A stretch of 26,860 nt of DNA, from the NCBI GenBank assembly GCA_030643125.1, contig DAOWML010000001.1, forward strand, positions 1 to 26,860, written 5' to 3'. This DNA is from Bacteroidales bacterium. GTDB taxonomy: Bacteria; Bacteroidota; Bacteroidia; Bacteroidales; UBA12077. The notes beneath the pieces are model-generated. The model had not been told where the DNA came from. It saw nothing but the letters and a program-made list of their open reading frames with translations, and ran no database searches. Within the stretch, counting starts at the first letter, position 1; every line of letters starts with the position of its first letter. This document shows positions 1,401 to 9,100 of this stretch, in pieces. The position numbers and the translations under genes were made by a program.

Positions 1401-2158
1401 TAGAAGTTAAAAATATAGCAAAATCTTTTAACGGAGTTCCGGTTTTAAAGAATATTGATGTTTTATTTGAGAAAGGTAAAACAAACCTGATTATTGGACA
1501 AAGTGGATCAGGGAAAACCGTTCTGTTGAAGTCTATTGTTGGATTACATGATATAGAACAAGGGAAAGTAATATTTGACGGGACAGTTTTTAATGAACTA
1601 AACTTTAAAGATAAAAAAGAAATGAGAAAGCAAATAGGAATGCTTTTTCAGGGAGGAGCTTTGTTTGATTCTGCTACAGTAGAAGAAAATGTAATGTATC
1701 CATTAAATATGTTTACAGAATTGACATATTCAGAAAAAAGAGATAGAGCGAACGAGTGTCTTAAAAGAGTTAATATTATAAATGCCAATCAATTATATCC
1801 TGCAGAAATTAGTGGTGGAATGAAAAAAAGAGTGGCAATTGCAAGGGCTATTGCTTTAAACCCAAGATATTTATTTTGCGATGAGCCTAATTCCGGATTA
1901 GATCCTCAAACGGCAATATTAATTGATGATTTAATTAAAGAGATTACAGTAGAGTATAATATGACCACAATTGTTAATACGCATGACATGAATTCTGTTA
2001 TGGAAATTGGCGATAAAGTTGTATTTATTTATAATGGTGCAAAATGGTGGGAAGGAACACGAGATGATATTTTTGATTCAGAAAATGAAGAATTAAATAA
2101 ATTTATTTTTGCATCTAAACTTTCACAGAAGATAAGAGATTTAAAAAACAGGCATTAA
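1397..2158 (+). CDS. mlaF: MlaF/Mkl-family ABC transporter ATP-binding protein
   Basis: Walker A GQSGSGKT, Q-loop GMLFQGGALFDS, signature EISGGMKKRVAIARA, Walker B LFCDEPNSGLDP, H-loop THDM. Translationally coupled to mlaE. Confidence 0.92.
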   Translation: MIEVKNIAKSFNGVPVLKNIDVLFEKGKTNLIIGQSGSGKTVLLKSIVGLHDIEQGKVIFDGTVFNELNFKDKKEMRKQIGMLFQGGALFDSATVEENVMYPLNMFTELTYSEKRDRANECLKRVNIINANQLYPAEISGGMKKRVAIARAIALNPRYLFCDEPNSGLDPQTAILIDDLIKEITVEYNMTTIVNTHDMNSVMEIGDKVVFIYNGAKWWEGTRDDIFDSENEELNKFIFASKLSQKIRDLKNRH

Positions 2159-2850
2159 CCTAATGCATATATTTTTTCAAGTCGCTTAATATCTAAAATT
2201 ACAATGTTTTTACCTTCAATTTGAATCAAATTATCTTTTCTGAATTCTGATAATACTCTGATTACATTTTCAGTACTCATGTCGATTAATTCGGCAACTT
2301 CTTTTCGGCTAATTGGCAGATTAAATCTTATTGAACTATAAATATGTTTCGAGAAAAAAAGTAATATATAAGCTATTCTCCCACGTAACTGACGGGTATT
2401 AATATCAATTCTTGTTTTAATTACAGAATCGGAAACAGTACTTATTTTTTCAAAAAAATCGATGGCAAACGTCCCGTTTGTTTTTATGAATTTTTTTATG
2501 ATTTCTAAATCAACAAAACAAACAATAGAATCTTCAATAGCTGTGGTAGAATAAATATGTTTTGTGTTTGAAAAAATACTCAACAGACCAATAAAATCCT
2601 GTGGTTTTGCAATACTTAGAATATGTTCTTTAGTGTTGATCTCTGTTTTATATAATTTCACAAGACCATTTTGAAGGTACATAAAAGATAGAATCTCATC
2701 TCCTTCTGTGCTAATATTCTCACCTTTTCTATAAAATTTTTCTACTTTTTTAGCATTAATGATCTTTAATTCTTCTGCAGATAAGTTTTTAAAAGCCCAT
2801 GACCTATAAATACAACTCTTACAATTACTGACTTTGCGCGATAATTCCAT
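2155..2850 (-). CDS. Crp/Fnr-family transcriptional regulator with N-terminal CxxC
   Basis: cNMP-binding-like beta-roll (YRKGENISTEGD...YLQNGLVKL...DFIGLL) and C-terminal HTH (LPISRKEVAELIDMSTENVIRVLSEFRKDNLI). Start placed at ATG 2850 (MELSRKVSNCKSC) because the ORF-track ATG at 2886 lies inside the operator palindrome. Confidence 0.9.
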   Translation of the reverse strand: MELSRKVSNCKSCIYRSWAFKNLSAEELKIINAKKVEKFYRKGENISTEGDEILSFMYLQNGLVKLYKTEINTKEHILSIAKPQDFIGLLSIFSNTKHIYSTTAIEDSIVCFVDLEIIKKFIKTNGTFAIDFFEKISTVSDSVIKTRIDINTRQLRGRIAYILLFFSKHIYSSIRFNLPISRKEVAELIDMSTENVIRVLSEFRKDNLIQIEGKNIVILDIKRLEKIYALG

Positions 2851-2872
2851 TTTTTTAACCTTAGTTTGAATG

Positions 2873-2902
2873 ATGATATATATCATTAATGATATATATC
2901 AT
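2873..2902. promoter_or_regulatory. Tandem FNR-like operator: ATGATATATATCAT-TA-ATGATATATATCAT (30-bp perfect palindrome)
   Basis: Two identical 14-bp palindromes at 2873-2886 and 2889-2902, each ATGAT-N4-ATCAT (FNR consensus TTGAT-N4-ATCAA), lying between a divergent Crp/Fnr gene and the sqr operon. Confidence 0.65.
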
Positions 2903-2935
2903 AATATATAAAGATATAAATATATTTATATCTGT

Positions 2936-2943
2936 TAATTTTG
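2936..2943 (+). promoter_or_regulatory. -7 element (TAATTTTG) for the sqr operon
   Basis: Exact TAnnTTTG match 49 bp before the ATG at 2993. No TTTG at the expected -33 position. Confidence 0.6.
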
Positions 2944-2992
2944 TAACAGTAAAATCAATTAAAATATAAAAATAACATAAAAATTATCTAAA

Positions 2993-4222
2993 ATGAAAAA
3001 GATTCTGATTTTGGGCGCCGGTACAGGCGGAACAATAATGGCTAATAAATTAAGAAAAGCACTTGATCGAGAAGAGTGGGATATTACTATTGTCGATAAG
3101 CACAAAACCCATTATTACCAGCCCGGATTTTTATTTATTCCGTTTGGCATTTATAATAAACAGGATGTAATTAAACCGAAGGCTGATTTTATACCTGCAG
3201 GAGTAAACATCATTTATAGTGATATAGATAAAATTGTTCCTGATAATAATAAAGTCTTATTGGAAGGAGGAAAGGCTTTAAATTACGATTTTCTTATTGT
3301 TGCAACCGGCACAAGGGTCGACCCAGCAGAAACTCCGGGTTTAAAAGATGAATTGTGGCAAAAAGAAATATTCGATTTTTATACTGTTGAAGGCGCAGTT
3401 GCTTTAAGAGAGTTTTTCGAAACATGGCAAGGCGGCCGTTTAGTAATGAATATTGCCGAATTACCATTTAAGTGCCCGGTAGCTCCGTTAGAGTTTGTAT
3501 TCCTGGCTGATGAATATTTTACTAAAGCAGGGATTCGTGATAAAGTAGATATTACTTATGTAACTCCATTACCCGGGGCATTTACTAAACCAAAGTCAAC
3601 TAAGATGTTAGGTGAGTTGCTTAATGAAAAGAATATTACGGTAATTCCCGATTTTTATTTAGAAAGGGTTGATAATAAAGAAAAGAAAATTAAATCTTAT
3701 GATGGTCAGGAAGTCCCGTTTGATGTTTTAGCTATTGTTCCTGTTAATAAAGGTGATGATATGATTGAGCGTAGTGGTATGGGCGATGACTTGAACTTTA
3801 TACCAACCGATAAGCATACCTTAAGATCGGAAAAGTATGAAAACATTTTTGTTTTAGGCGATGCTTCAAATATTCCTACTTCGAAAGCCGGATCTGTTGT
3901 TCATTTTGCTGCAGATGTGCTTTTTGACAATATTCAGTGTGCAATTAAGGGGCGCGAATTAAGAGCAAAATTTGATGGACATGCAAATTGCTATATTGAG
4001 ACAGGTTTTGGGAAAGGCTCATTAATTGATTTTAATTATGAAACTGAACCTTTGCCAGGAACCTATCCACTGCCGGGTATTGGGCCATTTGGTTTATTAC
4101 AAAATACAAAAATGAACCATTATGGTAAGGTAATTTTTCGGTGGATATACTGGCATATATTATTGAAAGGAAAAGAGCTTCCTATTGAGAATGAAATGAC
4201 AATGGCTGGTAAGAAAAGGTAA
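2993..4222 (+). CDS. sqr: Sulfide:quinone oxidoreductase-like flavoprotein (type III-like SQR / FCSD family)
   Basis: Rossmann motif ILILGAGTGG, HYYQPG, KCPVAPLEF (Cys161), FAD motif NIFVLGDA..PTSKAGSVVH, FDGHANCYIETG (Cys333). Tyr130 (DFYT) stands where type I SQRs have their extra Cys. Amphipathic C-terminal helix. Confidence 0.8.
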   Translation: MKKILILGAGTGGTIMANKLRKALDREEWDITIVDKHKTHYYQPGFLFIPFGIYNKQDVIKPKADFIPAGVNIIYSDIDKIVPDNNKVLLEGGKALNYDFLIVATGTRVDPAETPGLKDELWQKEIFDFYTVEGAVALREFFETWQGGRLVMNIAELPFKCPVAPLEFVFLADEYFTKAGIRDKVDITYVTPLPGAFTKPKSTKMLGELLNEKNITVIPDFYLERVDNKEKKIKSYDGQEVPFDVLAIVPVNKGDDMIERSGMGDDLNFIPTDKHTLRSEKYENIFVLGDASNIPTSKAGSVVHFAADVLFDNIQCAIKGRELRAKFDGHANCYIETGFGKGSLIDFNYETEPLPGTYPLPGIGPFGLLQNTKMNHYGKVIFRWIYWHILLKGKELPIENEMTMAGKKR

Positions 4223-4240
4223 AACCTAAAAACTGAAAAA

Positions 4241-4810
4241 ATGGAAGTTAAAACAGAAAATGTTCAGGAGCAGATAAATCAAATCAATCAAAAGCTTGAT
4301 CTTGTTTTACATTATGTAAACGAACAAAGATTAAAAAGCGAAATGATTGAAGACTTGGTCTCTGATGTTTCAATTATAAGTAAAGACGCATTTACAAGTG
4401 CTGTTGAAGAACTTGATACGCATGGTATAGAACTCAATGTAGATGATATTAAACTACTTGTTTTCAAACTGATTAGAAATGTAAATAATTTCTCTCAGGC
4501 AATGGATATGTTTGAAAGTATTACTGATTTATTAAAAGATGTAGGTCCGATAATTAATGAAGCAGGTATAGATTTTACATATAAACTGCATGAGTTTGAA
4601 CAAAAAGGTTATTTCGAGTTTTTTAAACAAATGGCTGATCTTTTTGATAATGCCGTTGTTGCTTATCAGAAAACAGATTTTGATCAGGACAAGAAATACT
4701 CAATATGGAAAATTATTCGCGAAATGAATAGCCCGGAGATTAAAAGAACTTTAGGATTTATGATTACATTCTTAAAGAATATTTCAAAAGAATCGATAAC
4801 TAATAAATAA
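4241..4810 (+). CDS. DUF1641-type helical protein
   Basis: Predicted all-helical, with N-terminal coiled coil and C-terminal KYSIWKIIREMNSPEIKRTLGFMITFLKNISK resembling the DUF1641 motif. 18 bp after sqr. Confidence 0.65.
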   Translation: MEVKTENVQEQINQINQKLDLVLHYVNEQRLKSEMIEDLVSDVSIISKDAFTSAVEELDTHGIELNVDDIKLLVFKLIRNVNNFSQAMDMFESITDLLKDVGPIINEAGIDFTYKLHEFEQKGYFEFFKQMADLFDNAVVAYQKTDFDQDKKYSIWKIIREMNSPEIKRTLGFMITFLKNISKESITNK

Positions 4811-4833
4811 TTAATCTATTAAAAATTAATATT

Positions 4834-5139
4834 ATGACACAAAAAACAGTAGCAGGTGTAAACCTTGAAGTAACTGACGATGGATACCTGGTAGACTCAT
4901 CTCAGTGGACTGAAAAGATTGCAAAGGAGATTGCAAAAGAAGAAAACATTGAACTTAATGATAAACATTTCGAAGTTATCAAGTTTATTCGCGAAAATGC
5001 TGATTCCGGCTTAACAATTCGTAAAGTAGGAAAATCGGGAGTAGTTGATATTAAAGGATTTTATGATTTATTTCCCGGTGGGCCATTAAAAATGTCGACT
5101 AAAATTGCCGGAATTCAGAAACCATCGAGTTGTGTTTAA
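4834..5139 (+). CDS. tusE: TusE/DsrC/DsvC-family sulfur relay protein (terminal Cys only)
   Basis: 101 aa with DDGYLVDSSQWTEKIAKEIAKEENIELNDKHFEVIKFIR and C-terminal LFPGGPLKMSTKIAGIQKPSSCV. Penultimate Cys100 present; Thr89 at the CysB position. Confidence 0.85.
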   Translation: MTQKTVAGVNLEVTDDGYLVDSSQWTEKIAKEIAKEENIELNDKHFEVIKFIRENADSGLTIRKVGKSGVVDIKGFYDLFPGGPLKMSTKIAGIQKPSSCV

Positions 5140-5156
5140 TTTAAAAATATAATATT

Positions 5157-5660
5157 ATGGCTGAAAAAAAAGATACACAAGTAAAAAAAGTGGCTATGAT
5201 TTGTGCCAAAGGTACAATTGAAGATGTATATGCTACGTTGGTAATGGCAAACGGCGCTGTTATGGAAGGTATGGAAGCAAAGGTTTTCTTTACTTTCTTT
5301 GGTCTTGATGCTATTACAAAAAAATACATGAATAAACTTCATACAGCGACAGTTGGAAATCCAGCTATGCGTATGCCTGGAGGTTTGACTTTCCCAACTT
5401 TACTAGGGGCGATACCCGGAGTTGAAGCAGGAGTTTCTGCTATGATGCGAGGCCAGATGGAAAAACTGGATATTCCTCCGGTAGATGAATTTTTAGATAT
5501 GATTACTGCAGGAGGCGGAGAAATTTATGCATGTAAACTTGCTGTTGATATGTTTAAATTAAAGAAAGAAGACTTAAGCGATCATGTAATTGATATTATT
5601 ACTATTGGCGATTTTTATGCAATGGCTGGTGGCGAAGGGTCTCAGGTTATTTTTACTTAA
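5157..5660 (+). CDS. DsrE/DsrF/DsrH-like (DsrE2-type) sulfurtransferase-family protein
   Basis: KVFFTFFGLDAI and IYACKLAVDMFKLKKEDL (Cys126), ending GSQVIFT, a typical DsrE2 pattern. Last gene before a terminator. Confidence 0.8.
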   Translation: MAEKKDTQVKKVAMICAKGTIEDVYATLVMANGAVMEGMEAKVFFTFFGLDAITKKYMNKLHTATVGNPAMRMPGGLTFPTLLGAIPGVEAGVSAMMRGQMEKLDIPPVDEFLDMITAGGGEIYACKLAVDMFKLKKEDLSDHVIDIITIGDFYAMAGGEGSQVIFT

Positions 5661-5680
5661 ACTAAGTTTTGTATGTAGTG

Positions 5681-5706
5681 AAACCGCCTCTTGGGGCGGT
5701 TTTTTA
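5681..5706 (+). terminator. Intrinsic terminator of the sqr operon, possibly bidirectional
   Basis: Stem AAACCGCC (5681-5688) / GGCGGTTT (5695-5702), loop TCTTGG, followed by a T-run that overlaps the stop codon of the convergent gene. Confidence 0.85.
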
Positions 5707-6405
5707 TTGAATACCAATCTTGTTTTTTAACTCTTTAATAAAAGTTTCTTTATCTTGAATATCAGAATTTATTAGTTTATTATACCAGTGATTAACCATT
5801 TCCATATTGTCCATATTCTTATAAATCAGAATTATGTAATAATACGACAAACCATGAATCTGAGATTGAATATTTATATTTCCTTCTAATACCTTTTCAA
5901 AATAAGGAATTGATTTATTTAATTTATTGTTCTGGTATAAATCAAAACCCTTTTCAAATGCTCTTATTTTTTCATTATGTTCATTGTCTAAAATGATGTT
6001 AAAGAATGAAAAGCAAGCATTATTACAGTTTTCAATCAGGTCAATAAATTTAATATTATCAGATATTTTTTCGAAATAGAGTTTAAATTCAAGTACTTCG
6101 CCGATATATGCAAATTTATGTTGATCTGGGCAAGCGGGAATATTTTCTGATTTTATTAATTGATATACTTCGATTCCTATGGAATTTTTGATATAAATAT
6201 TTTCATCGGCACAAAACCAGCCTCCCTGGCTACGTTTGTTTGTTACTTTTAGTGATATTATTGTTTCACTATCGGTAATCTCAATTTTAGTTATTTCAAG
6301 CTCCGGATGACTTTGCTTACCGGCAATAGGATTTTCATATACCTGGGCTTTAGCTAAAAATGGCAGGCAGAAAAGAAAGGCTATAGCTAAAATTTGTTTT
6401 TTCAT
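5704..6405 (-). CDS. Secreted hypothetical protein, beta-rich N-terminal domain plus TPR-like C-terminus
   Basis: Signal peptide MKKQILAIAFLFCLPFLAKA|Q, four Cys in the mature domain, helical tail AFEKGFDLYQNNKLNKSIPYFEKVL...LSYYYIILIY resembling a TPR. Confidence 0.6.
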   Translation of the reverse strand: MKKQILAIAFLFCLPFLAKAQVYENPIAGKQSHPELEITKIEITDSETIISLKVTNKRSQGGWFCADENIYIKNSIGIEVYQLIKSENIPACPDQHKFAYIGEVLEFKLYFEKISDNIKFIDLIENCNNACFSFFNIILDNEHNEKIRAFEKGFDLYQNNKLNKSIPYFEKVLEGNINIQSQIHGLSYYYIILIYKNMDNMEMVNHWYNKLINSDIQDKETFIKELKNKIGIQ

Positions 6406-6555: not shown

Positions 6556-7017
6556 TTATTCATAAAACTGAAATAAATATTGTTCACTAAATTCTATTTT
6601 ATTCTTCTTAAGCAAATGTAAATATTCATCTCTAAACGATCTTTTTTTATGATGATTTTCCTGTTCTATTATATATTTAATTACTGTATCTCTTTGCGAT
6701 CGGGAATATGAAAATGCTCCGTATCCCCTTTGCCATTCAAATCGTTCCGGAACAAGATGATTTTCATTTATCCATTTAGAAGAATTGGATTTAATAACGT
6801 GTAAAACTTTTGATATTGAAATATTTGGGTTTAATTCGAAAAATACGTGAACATGATCTGTAAAACCATTTACCGCCAACGGAAATAATCCCATACCTTT
6901 TATAATTCCGCTAATGTATTCAAAAATACGGTTACGGATTTCCTTTTTCAAAATATTTTCCTTGCCTTGAATTGCAAAAACTGCATGAATGTTAATTTGT
7001 GTATAGGTATTTGCCAT
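6556..7017 (-). mobile_element. tnpA: Stand-alone HUH Y1 transposase, IS200/IS605 TnpA superfamily, REP-associated (RAYT-like)
   Basis: MANTYTQINIHAVF..., HUH motif DHVH, WQRGYGAFSYS, and catalytic helix VIKYIIEQENHH. No tnpB adjacent; flanked by hairpin repeats on both sides. Start placed at ATG 7017 because the 41 extra codons from 7140 are repeat-derived. Confidence 0.88.
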
Positions 7018-7019
7018 AT

Positions 7020-7290
7020 AATGGTTTCTATTGTCCTTATAGGACTTACTTTTGTTGATTGCTACGATACTATTGTTGTCCTTACAGGAACAAATCACAT
7101 TAATTAATGAAAATACTAAAAAACAAATATAATTATTCATTTTATAATATTTCTAATTTACTACCATACTATCGTCCTTCCAGGACTTACTTTTGTTAAT
7201 TACTATTATACTACCATACTGCTGTCCTTACAGGACAAGTCTATTGTTTGTGCATATTGTTATATTAATATACTGTGATTTCTATAGGAC
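7020..7290 (-). repeat. REP-like units B1-B5, inverted relative to the A units
   Basis: GTCCT-nnn-AGGAC hairpins at 7033-7045, 7078-7090 (ends AGGAA), 7174-7186 and 7224-7236, with a degenerate copy at 7278-7290. B3 and B4 are preceded by CTACCATACT, so B3 reads GTCCT-GGA-AGGAC-GATAGTATGGTAG on the minus strand. Confidence 0.8.
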
Positions 7291-7507: not shown

Positions 7508-9100
7508 TTATTCAGACTTTTTACCGAATTTAAAATCAAAGCCAATAGCAATAAATAAATTGTCTCTGTTGTAAGTTTCTGTAACAGTTTCTATATTAGT
7601 TGGGCTTCCTGCAATATTATAATCGAATTTTTTATCATCTTCAACATACATTGTATAAGCAACAGCCAGATTTAAGTCGATCTTTGGAGTAATTGAATAA
7701 GCACCACCTAAACCATATGTATTTGAAGAAATCTTATAATCCATATCAGTCTGGAATTCCTCACTTACACCTGATTGTGCCCTTAAATAACCACCACTAA
7801 CAAGTATTTTATCTGAAATATTGTATTCAAGACCTAATGCCCATTCCCAGTAATTGTTATCTATTATATCTTCATTTTTGATAGCGTTACCAAGAGCATC
7901 TTTATGGCCATAGTCTGCAGATTTATCAAAATAATAGTGCATTCCGGTTGATAATAAGAATTTGTCAGTGATTTTATAATCTGCACCAACGGTTAATAAA
8001 GCTGGCATATCATTTCTTTTAATTTCACCGTCAGGGTATTTATATAAAGGTGTTAAACCGTCATAGCCATAAAGAAACCCTTTTCCTTCTTCAACATTAT
8101 TTTCCAGTTCAATTTTGGTTTGGAATTCATACTTTAAACCAATATTTAATTTATCGTTAGGGCTAATATTTACACCAATAATAGGAGTGATGCCTGAGCC
8201 CGTTTGTTCTATATCTGCTGTTTGATCTTCAAGGACTGTAGCTTTTAAATCCATACCAACAGCACCAGCACCAAAAGCTTGAGATGCTTGACTATTTGTC
8301 ATTCCTGATTGATATAACCCGAGACTGGTAAGTATTGCAATTCCAGTTGGATCTGTAAATGGATCATCAGCACCTAAAAATCCACCTGTTATATAATCAC
8401 TAATATCATTTGATGTCGCTTCAAGATCATCGCTTACACCTTCAAGAAATGTGCTTCCGGGTACAATTGTTCCACCCATATTTACGGTAATGTCTTTTAA
8501 ATATCCATTATAAGTATTTTTGGCTGTAACATATCGACCACCTAAATACATAGAAAATACATCATTAATTTCATAAGATACACCTAACTGGTATCCCCAG
8601 AAAACAGAACTGCCTTCTAAATATGCGTTCATATTATAACCTGTAACTCCTTGTGTGGTAAAAGCTGGAACTAAGTCAGCAATCCCCATTTCAAAAGAAG
8701 GTAAACCTTTGCCAAATTCAGCAGTACCACCACCACCAATTACATTAACACCAAAAGAGAAAGCAAATTTACCGGTATTATATGATGCGTATATGCTTGG
8801 AAGTATAGGAACAGTTACAGAACCTTCGTAATCAACAGGAGAGTTATTTAAATACGAGTAGCTTGAAGTTATTGTTCTGTTCTGAAATAATGTTTGGTTG
8901 TTTATAGACACATAAAAGCCATCGCCTAATTTAGTAAGACCGGCCGGATTATAAAAAACAGCATCTAAATCGGTTGTAGCGTCGCGAGCGAACATTCGAA
9001 CCCATGCTGCACTTTGGTTAGTATTGTGAACAATACCACCCGAATAAGAGAAAAATGGCAGGCTTAGTAAACCTACTAAAAGTAAAGTTATTCTTTTCAT
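7508..9100 (-). CDS. OmpP1/FadL/TodX-family outer-membrane beta-barrel transporter
   Basis: Signal peptide, hatch-domain motif DLDAVFYNPAGL, amphipathic beta-strands, C-terminal LFIAIGFDFKF. Confidence 0.8.
   Translation of the reverse strand: MKRITLLLVGLLSLPFFSYSGGIVHNTNQSAAWVRMFARDATTDLDAVFYNPAGLTKLGDGFYVSINNQTLFQNRTITSSYSYLNNSPVDYEGSVTVPILPSIYASYNTGKFAFSFGVNVIGGGGTAEFGKGLPSFEMGIADLVPAFTTQGVTGYNMNAYLEGSSVFWGYQLGVSYEINDVFSMYLGGRYVTAKNTYNGYLKDITVNMGGTIVPGSTFLEGVSDDLEATSNDISDYITGGFLGADDPFTDPTGIAILTSLGLYQSGMTNSQASQAFGAGAVGMDLKATVLEDQTADIEQTGSGITPIIGVNISPNDKLNIGLKYEFQTKIELENNVEEGKGFLYGYDGLTPLYKYPDGEIKRNDMPALLTVGADYKITDKFLLSTGMHYYFDKSADYGHKDALGNAIKNEDIIDNNYWEWALGLEYNISDKILVSGGYLRAQSGVSEEFQTDMDYKISSNTYGLGGAYSITPKIDLNLAVAYTMYVEDDKKFDYNIAGSPTNIETVTETYNRDNLFIAIGFDFKFGKKSE

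Follow-up and report, generated by a model that had tools for sequence, protein, structure and literature searches.

Why does a sulfide:quinone oxidoreductase (SQR) gene stand directly before genes for a DUF1641 protein and two small sulfur carriers, and what would such a set of proteins do together? The question is raised by a locus in a 26,860-nucleotide stretch of DNA from a Bacteroidales bacterium (GTDB lineage UBA12077; assembly GCA_030643125.1, contig DAOWML010000001.1), the whole of which is called the window here and which is contig C26 of assembly G000 (2.3 Mb, 340 contigs, 79% complete). Four plus-strand genes in the list of open reading frames (ORFs), spaced 18, 23 and 17 bp apart, encode a type III SQR-like flavoprotein, a DUF1641 protein, a TusE-type carrier and a DsrE2-like carrier. 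The answer proposed here, to which we give slightly better than an even chance, is that these four presumably co-transcribed proteins constitute a cytoplasmic sulfide:menaquinone oxidoreductase system. It draws on the conserved order of the genes, on natural SQR-TusE fusions and on cysteines that do not vary among the orthologues.

The gene calls for the five-gene locus are the listed ORFs, and families were judged against Pfam and NCBIfam cut-offs; the Pfam matches of all five proteins lie above them. An earlier note on this DNA had described four co-oriented genes 17-23 bp apart facing a Cys-bearing Crp/Fnr gene, and both the ORFs and the family matches bear this out. The features are as follows, in window coordinates.

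2155..2886, minus strand: Crp/Fnr-family regulator (Pfam cNMP_binding 2.2e-16 and HTH_Crp_2 6.8e-16)
2874-2885 and 2890-2901, no strand assigned: two FNR-type boxes TGAT-N4-ATCA, 16 bp centre to centre, the probable operator of the divergent regulator
2936..2943, plus strand: TAATTTTG, a match to the Bacteroidota -7 promoter consensus, read from the sequence, 50 nt 5' of the SQR start codon
2993..4222, plus strand: type III SQR-like flavoprotein, Cys form, 409 aa (NCBIfam NF049943)
4241..4810, plus strand: DUF1641 protein, 189 aa (PF07849)
4834..5139, plus strand: TusE-type sulfur carrier, 101 aa (PF04358, TIGR03342)
5157..5660, plus strand: DsrE2B-like (DrsE_2 family) soluble sulfur carrier, 167 aa (PF13686)
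5680..5703, plus strand: intrinsic terminator hairpin and T-run, with a 10-bp GC-rich stem and a 4-nt loop (-14.4 kcal/mol)

The flavoprotein scores 657.8 bits against the NCBIfam model for the selenoprotein subtype of type III SQR (NF049943; cut-off 525), and its closest solved relative is human SQOR, which aligns over the whole length (E 2.6e-52). In this alignment Cys161 (FKCPVAP) and Cys333 (HANCYIETG) fall on the active-site cysteine pair of human SQOR, and both are invariant in 68/68 orthologues. By sequence they correspond to Cys159 and Cys339, the canonical cysteines of type III SQRs (PMC13047784). The enzyme would face the cytoplasm, because it has no signal peptide and carries the GAGTGG motif of a Rossmann fold binding flavin adenine dinucleotide (FAD) at residues 8-13, near its N-terminus.

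At residue 333 the window enzyme has TGC (Cys) in an open 409-aa frame and is thereby the Cys form, while in the selenoprotein subtype the corresponding position is predicted to hold selenocysteine (Sec). The representative homologue P0140 breaks off a single residue short of the Cys333 position; on its contig (L122) the stop is TGA, and the frame then continues in homology (...DGHAT-U-LVVTG...). Since the Sec subtype places Sec exactly there, the Cys333 position is probably that of a catalytic redox residue. Such a Sec-looking SQR was seen in 1 of the best 150 representatives. The single Sec-form relative examined has SQR and DUF1641 without the carriers, which suggests that the parts of the cassette are modular. 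Beside this pair lies a molybdopterin oxidoreductase gene (L122:485-2392, minus strand) that is called as two genes, of 135 and 495 aa, and may contain another in-frame TGA (Sec).

With regard to the carriers, the TusE protein matches PF04358 (8.4e-25, 87.7 bits) and TIGR03342 (76.3 bits against a cut-off of 53.5), and stays below the cut-off of the E. coli-type TusE equivalog NF008562 (64.4 against 191 bits). Its C-terminus reads ...KPSSCV, its lone cysteine being the penultimate residue, Cys100, which is invariant in 69/69 sequences; a second conserved cysteine occurs in none of the 69. DsrC proper has such a second cysteine 10-11 residues before the last one, and in an alignment to A. vinosum DsrC (1YX3) the window protein has Thr at this CysB position. 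Because of this Thr, and of the missing second cysteine throughout the 69 sequences, the protein is classified from its sequence as a TusE-type persulfide carrier and not as a redox-cycling DsrC. The other carrier matches PF13686 (1.4e-26, 93.7 bits; cut-off 25) and falls short of the DsrE2 equivalog NF047629 (98.1 against 210 bits), so that its membership is that of the wider DrsE_2 family. Its Cys126, invariant in 68/68 sequences, aligns with a cysteine of its best solved relative, 2QS7 (E 2.9e-14), which is listed as a homotrimeric DsrE2B protein (PMC11094781).

Natural fusions join the flavoprotein to the first of these carriers. In two proteins, P0130 (581 aa, 48% identical to the window SQR) and P0164 (562 aa, 36%), a flexible linker ties a complete SQR to a TusE domain with one Cys, which ends in ...PKPRGCV or ...PKPVGCI. 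The P0130 linker is clearly of low complexity; a DrsE_2 gene follows directly 3' on the same contig, where no DUF1641 gene is found. Gene fusions are a classical sign that two proteins share an intermediate. Direct coupling of SQR and TusE is thus supported by the fusions together with the invariant Cys161, Cys333, Cys100 and Cys126. The earlier note had proposed that SQR passes sulfur directly to a TusE/DsrE2 relay, and the SQR-TusE link in it gains support from the two diverged fusions, from the Sec variant at Cys333 and from the four invariant cysteines. Separately, the P0130 linker was considered as a DUF1641 remnant and rejected as such (hhalign probability 0.1%). A third kind of fusion is seen in P0134 (568 aa), in which an SQR homologue carries a C-terminal pair of CBS domains.

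Conservation was assessed in 150 loci, 70 from sampled Bacteroidota genomes and 80 named ones from the species-representative collection; many of the loci counted without a cassette gene end before reaching that gene. An SQR orthologue (59-92% identity, no internal stops) occurs in 59/300 species genomes of an even sample of Bacteroidales (~20%). The order SQR-[DUF1641]-TusE-DsrE2 is kept in all 70 Bacteroidota loci where the contig reaches, and likewise in the 80 named loci, whose labels comprise Bacteroidales, Flavobacteriaceae, Cytophagia, Chitinophagales, Ignavibacteriota, Calditrichota, KSB1, Marinimicrobia, Verrucomicrobiota, Chloroflexota, Ca. Zhuqueibacter and Balneolota. The cassette genomes are labelled with about ten phyla, and on the SQR tree the cassette appears to be horizontally mobile. 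Cultured carriers are Lutimonas halocynthiae CECT 8444 (Flavobacteriaceae; L154), Opitutaceae bacterium MBA3-11 (Verrucomicrobiota; L192) and Rhodohalobacter sp. 8-1 (Balneolota; L190), the last of which lacks DUF1641; we take L. halocynthiae and Rhodohalobacter to be aerobic isolates. The idea of a conserved functional unit has thus withstood the gene-neighbourhood check, with the same order in essentially all 150 loci.

Clustering of all ORFs of the 150 loci recovered SQR in 150, TusE in 139, DsrE2 in 134 and DUF1641 in 126, and no other broadly recurring gene. Both carriers are present in every long-enough locus except L207, which has DsrE2 only, TusE not being detected. Since the carriers are nearly always retained and DUF1641 is repeatedly missing, the core of the Cys-form cassettes is SQR-TusE-DsrE2, with DUF1641 as a frequent but dispensable fourth member.

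Two side observations concern the locus set. A gene for a FadL/TodX-type outer-membrane channel adjoins the cassette in 15/150 loci with labels of several phyla (L024, L026, L027, L032, L069, L070, L088, L165-L167, L180, L191, L192, L195 and L200). Since S8 is hydrophobic and channels of the FadL type let hydrophobic molecules through, they might conceivably take part in exporting or importing sulfur. In addition, locus L159 (G131:C3) bears the NCBI label 'Deltaproteobacteria bacterium MAG213', which looks wrong, because the taxonomy puts the genome of this same contig in the window's own class.

The DUF1641 protein is all-helical and Cys-free and matches PF07849 over residues 150-183 (4e-09, 36.6 bits; gathering threshold 21). 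A profile of 46 orthologues matches ForE1/YjgD (PDB 8RQZ) at E 1.4e-07 over ~120 residues, profile positions 104-223 against chain residues 34-159, and hence beyond the 39-residue core. An AlphaFold2 monomer model has six helices (mean predicted local distance difference test, pLDDT, 85; predicted template modelling score, pTM, 0.34). The DUF1641 gene lies directly 3' of the SQR gene in 126/150 loci; conversely, in an even sample of the phylum a DUF1641 homologue was found in 12/400 genomes, directly after SQR in 11/11 of those fetched. NDH-2, the partner of Ncp, belongs to the same superfamily of flavoproteins with two dinucleotide-binding domains as SQR.

It was reported that the DUF1641 proteins HucM, ForE and Ncp/YjlC are tetrameric tubes with a hydrophobic lumen, which dock soluble quinone-reducing enzymes (Huc, ForC and Ndh) to the membrane and carry menaquinone (PMC13524794), and that ForC without ForE loses menaquinone-7 (MK-7) and its formate:menadione activity (PMC8808070). 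A proteome table of Ignicoccus hospitalis also has a DUF1641 protein and an adjacent FAD oxidoreductase rising together (PMC3149612). Treated as a passenger before, the gene thus belongs to a family now known for quinone-transporting scaffolds (PMC13524794, PMC8808070). We propose that the DUF1641 protein would serve as a scaffold or quinone conduit for SQR, and no published link between DUF1641 and an SQR was found in the literature.

The earlier note had further called the locus a self-contained, minimal pathway in which the usual sulfur partners are absent. Outside the cassette no sulfur gene was found in the 26.9-kb window, and none for rhodanese, TusA, Dsr, Hdr or MnmA, persulfide dioxygenase not having been searched for, and to this extent the description holds. 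In the rest of the genome it does not: an island of YeeE, TusA, rhodanese (four or five copies), DsrE2 and Hdr/MvhD-like genes, as well as MnmA, lies outside the window. In G000 this island is broken up over several contigs, with six rhodanese domains on C99, TusA on C194 and C59 and YeeE on C194, with a DrsE_2 paralogue, MvhD and several HdrA-like genes across C59, C104, C194 and C76. In a complete genome of the same genus (G503) the sulfur island is contiguous (C1:3990800-4003500, L128), ~120 kb from the SQR operon. It begins with TusA, YeeE, four rhodanese genes with a porin gene among them and a DrsE_2 paralogue, and continues with TusA, MvhD, two genes for HdrA-like flavo-FeS proteins, an ArsR-like gene and an Fe-S protein; two Crp/Fnr genes flank it. 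To judge from its gene content, this second island looks like a cytoplasmic thiosulfate- or sulfur-handling system. MnmA was found in the genome. Searches for dsrA and DsrH/TusB (PF04077) gave nothing, either in G000 or in four relatives, of which two are assembled into a single contig.

On the quinone side, G000 has two genes of the MqnA/D type, which belong to the futalosine route; a search of the genus for classical menA gave nothing, and cytochrome bd and a b558-type fumarate reductase (Frd) cytochrome are present in both same-genus genomes. Selenophosphate synthetase genes (selD) occur at G503:C1:1043297-1044223, G624:C8:54055-54972 and G000:C216:2791-3621. In the two complete same-genus genomes SelD sits in an open frame of 738-753 aa and is probably fused to another domain. 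Since SelD is encoded, the genus appears to use selenium, though its SQR is the Cys form.

The DNA of the window itself is contained in metagenomes from marine sediment, a cold seep, a volcano and a microbial mat, and in no RNA run searched was exactly this DNA present. Three studies contributed four sediment metatranscriptome libraries with contigs of relatives (80-95% alike, mostly 80-90%) that cover all four genes and span the junctions SQR/DUF1641 and TusE/DsrE2. The cassette genes of relatives appear in RNA libraries, from which neither a single transcript, nor transcript ends, nor a level of expression follows.

In the mechanism that is proposed, the type III SQR would oxidise HS- on the Cys161/Cys333 pair and FAD, and the two electrons would reduce menaquinone made by the futalosine route; cytochrome bd and fumarate reductase, both encoded in the genus, could re-oxidise it. 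The DUF1641 protein, as a homologue of ForE, HucM and Ncp, would oligomerise into a scaffold through which the flavoprotein is docked to the membrane and can reach quinone. The sulfane sulfur would stay enzyme-bound, with no release of polysulfide, until the Cys100 arm of TusE takes it, and would then be exchanged between Cys100 and Cys126 of the DsrE2B-like protein. From DsrE2 the sulfur could reach the TusA, the rhodaneses and the Hdr/MvhD-like island encoded elsewhere. A bolder form of the same idea, offered tentatively and with distinctly less confidence, would make SQR-DUF1641 an as yet unseen class of quinone-tube complex in Gram-negatives and Cys100 of TusE an obligate acceptor, so that this SQR type, the most abundant in sediments, would be a protein-persulfidating enzyme, feeding DsrE2, TusA, rhodaneses and an Hdr-like complex without any release of polysulfide or S0. 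The family identities, the gene order, the cysteines, the fusions, the Sec variant and the operator footprint are observed; every catalytic, binding and transfer step, and likewise the direction of the reaction, we infer.

Several points weigh against this scheme. The known Tus/Dsr relays run from DsrE-type to TusE/DsrC-type proteins, opposite to the order proposed, which makes the polarity of the TusE/DsrE2 exchange uncertain. The loci without DUF1641 fall at some six or seven distinct points of the SQR tree, and an element so repeatedly missing is not essential. Its relation to ForE comes from sequence comparison only: for the monomer model, Foldseek against the PDB returned nothing below E 7, and a VIA-align wide comparison gave generic coiled coils only (Z ~6), an outcome that argues neither way on membership of the family. 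The SQR may bind the membrane by itself, because its aromatic amphipathic C-terminal helix is alike in loci without DUF1641. Cytochrome bd and Frd were not found in G000, which is the 79% complete assembly. Finally, the metatranscriptome contigs stem from relatives, and DNA carry-over may be involved.

The alternative that survives best concerns the DUF1641 protein alone, which may only oligomerise, dock or stabilise SQR while quinone enters from the bilayer through the C-terminal helices of SQR; this is possible, if doubtful. The retained amphipathic helix and the repeated loss of DUF1641 both agree with it, as does the comparison of SQR columns, above all at the C-terminus, in which none was found that separates DUF1641-partnered from unpartnered enzymes (by eye, the last 15 residues look more basic in the partner-less ones). 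Membrane binding of the Caldivirga type III SQR is also said, in the paper citing that work, to depend on the oligomeric state (Lencina et al. 2020, cited in PMC13047784). What speaks for a part in quinone transfer is that all three characterised DUF1641 systems have a hydrophobic quinone-access tube (PMC13524794) and that loss of ForE costs ForC both its MK-7 and its formate:menadione activity (PMC8808070).

A second alternative is that the operon serves sulfur assimilation, SQR being a source of persulfide independent of cysteine desulfurase and TusE/DsrE2 feeding thio-cofactor synthesis, Fe-S clusters and tRNA thiolation instead of detoxification or respiration. TusE-family proteins hand sulfur to MnmA in E. 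coli, and here MnmA is present and TusB/DsrH was not found in the five genomes. The retention of the carriers in all long-enough loci save L207, even fused to SQR, suggests moreover that the persulfide is a wanted product. On the other hand, an abundant, strongly conserved quinone-linked enzyme would be heavy machinery for trace sulfur needs, and a patchy distribution (~20% of Bacteroidales species) with apparent mobility is typical of an environmental-stress module and not of core biosynthesis. Assimilation is considered unlikely.

The reaction might also run in reverse, with sulfane sulfur collected by DsrE2 and passed via TusE to the flavoprotein, which would reduce it to H2S with menaquinol and so serve an anaerobe as its sulfur or polysulfide reductase in the cytoplasm. 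Such a polarity would agree with the known relays (TusD to TusE and DsrEFH to DsrC), the YeeE-TusA-rhodanese-Hdr/MvhD-like island would suit the import and reduction of oxidised sulfur, and the regulator is Fnr-like. By standard potentials, however, electron flow from sulfide to menaquinone is downhill, whereas that from menaquinol (about -74 mV) to S0 or polysulfide (about -270 mV) runs steeply uphill; the proton motive force is out of reach of a monotopic flavoprotein, and a sulfidic habitat pushes the reaction further backwards. The cassette is also present in L. halocynthiae and Rhodohalobacter, presumed aerobes. It was reported that the obligate sulfur reducer I. hospitalis up-regulates its DUF1641 protein and FAD oxidoreductase with a polysulfide-reductase subunit (PMC3149612), which speaks for the reverse direction. 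Against it, H2S induces the closest characterised operon, that of Methylacidiphilum, in cells that are oxidising sulfide (PMC10205796). On account of the thermodynamics, the sulfidic habitat, the presumably aerobic carriers and the H2S-induced Methylacidiphilum operon we prefer oxidation of sulfide to its formation, and the reverse reaction is regarded as very unlikely.

That the module handles selenium (selenide or selenopersulfide) in place of sulfur can be given almost no credence, for although the family has a Sec-containing subtype, the genus encodes SelD and DsrE-like selenoproteins are known, the window enzyme and all 68 orthologues use Cys, the Sec form is 1 among the best 150 representatives, a Sec/Cys pair marks a redox-active site and not a selenium substrate, and SelD is unlinked to the operon.

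For the sulfide:menaquinone system that is preferred here, control by the divergent regulator is suggested by the DNA between the two genes. The motif TGAT-N4-ATCA has exactly two matches in the 26.9-kb window, those listed above, and recurs in 33/39 orthologous Crp-SQR intergenic regions; in 14 of these it forms a pair spaced by 16-17 bp. The core is that of an FNR-type operator, and at the outermost base of the window's boxes (ATGAT...ATCAT) A and T are exchanged relative to TTGAT-N4-ATCAA. The boxes form a strong phylogenetic footprint pointing to control by the divergent regulator, which in Bacteroidales would act on the operon through both of them. As annotated, the first box overlaps the start codon of the regulator, the ORF of which is listed with 243 aa. 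The true start is probably Met13 (base 2850), because the resulting 231 aa matches the orthologues, 226-232 aa being their commonest lengths, and because the overlap is then removed, both boxes becoming intergenic.

The Crp/Fnr gene is divergent from the SQR gene in 42/70 fetched Bacteroidota loci. Cys22, Cys25 and Cys123 of the regulator (numbering of the 243-aa ORF) are conserved in 38-39/39 orthologues, and two more cysteines present in 25/39 of these are Ser and Asn in the window protein. With only the three cysteines it is not a textbook FNR, which has four Cys, three N-terminal and one central, for a [4Fe-4S] cluster, and it reaches no equivalog cut-off of the NCBIfam Fnr models (58 bits against 228-300). 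Outside Bacteroidales a MerR-family gene replaces Crp/Fnr just 5' of SQR (L024-L029 and L164-L194; about 18 loci), so the same four genes seem to be wired to different sensors across lineages.

The earlier note had also assigned the four genes a shared promoter motif and a shared terminator, of which the terminator stands. The hairpin (z -3.41, with 0/200 shuffles equally stable) closes the operon and adjoins the stop of a convergent gene at 5704; a scan for sigma-70 consensus promoters and terminators remained at background level and missed it. The promoter motif is present, but TANNTTTG occurs at chance frequency in the AT-rich window (47 found against 46.7 expected), and TAATTTTG on its own therefore carries no evidential weight. 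A palindrome, CTGTTA-N6-TAACAG (2932-2949), overlaps this -7-like motif. Downstream, a genus-specific gene for a secreted protein (5704-6405) sits between the operon and a gene for an IS200/IS605-type Y1 transposase (6556-7140, minus strand; PF01797 5.5e-25) 850 bp 3' of the operon. A FadL-like gene (7508-9100, minus strand) follows 1.8 kb 3' of the operon and belongs to a homology cluster different from that of the cassette-linked FadL/TodX genes.

If this type of SQR does normally rely on a quinone scaffold and a dedicated pair of persulfide carriers, an extra, protein-bound step would have to enter the models of how heterotrophs detoxify sulfide and of what becomes of their zero-valent sulfur, and the principle of the DUF1641 quinone conduit would extend from enzymes of Bacillota and Actinobacteria to the sulfur metabolism of many Gram-negative phyla. 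In a survey of Bohai Sea sediment, type III SQRs were the most numerous type, and Bacteroidota sqr transcripts rose after addition of sulfide (PMC12345210). Thanks to the fusions, the Sec variant and the three cultured carriers, the hypothesis lends itself to direct testing. Each of the protein families is known; the combination of SQR, DUF1641 and a TusE/DsrE2B pair, with the fusions and the Sec variant, was not found described. The earlier note's statement that it knew of no characterisation of this four-gene arrangement accordingly agrees with the literature search, in which no paper describing the combination was found.

Among known systems, the Tus and Dsr relays (TusA-TusBCD-TusE-MnmA and TusA-DsrEFH-DsrC-DsrAB) share with the cassette the TusE/DsrC and DsrE families and the persulfide chemistry of a cysteine on a C-terminal arm. 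They differ in that no TusB/DsrH or DsrA was found in the five genomes here, that the terminal partner is a flavoprotein, that DsrE2B-type proteins are homo-oligomers and not DsrEFH, and that the flow proposed here is from enzyme to carrier. As described in the paper citing it, the SQR-Rhd442/DUF442 fusion of Cupriavidus pinatubonensis (Xin et al. 2016, cited in PMC11094781) resembles P0130 and P0164 in tethering an SQR to an acceptor of sulfane sulfur, whereas that acceptor is of the rhodanese type, the SQR is of another type, and the fusion is coupled to a persulfide dioxygenase pathway.

The SQR of Caldivirga maquilingensis is of the same type III and has the two canonical catalytic cysteines; according to the articles that cite the original work (Lencina et al. 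2013, 2020, cited in PMC10205796 and PMC13047784), it is monotopic and binds the membrane through its C-terminal helices and oligomerisation. Unlike the present enzyme it comes from an archaeon and has been examined on its own, and those citing accounts describe no partner proteins. With regard to the DUF1641 scaffold complexes, the gene here likewise adjoins that of a soluble or peripheral quinone-reducing enzyme, as in Ndh-Ncp (YjlD-YjlC), ForCE (YjgC-YjgD) and Huc-HucM. On the other hand, its partner is an SQR, a kind of enzyme missing from the described partners, and this SQR keeps an amphipathic C-terminus of its own; the hosts belong to Gram-negative phyla, whereas the survey of Ndh-Ncp found Bacillota only (PMC13524794).

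A further comparison is offered by the operon MFUM_v2_0219-0221 of Methylacidiphilum fumariolicum SolV, which encodes a type III SQR, a TusA-like and a DsrE2-like protein and showed ~1.7-fold induction by H2S while the organism oxidised sulfide to S0 (PMC10205796). It differs from the cassette in having TusA and not TusE, in that no DUF1641 is reported for it and in belonging to an aerobic, acidophilic methanotroph, and its carriers are unstudied as well; in both, a type III SQR gene is joined in one operon to two small carrier genes, one of them DsrE2-like.

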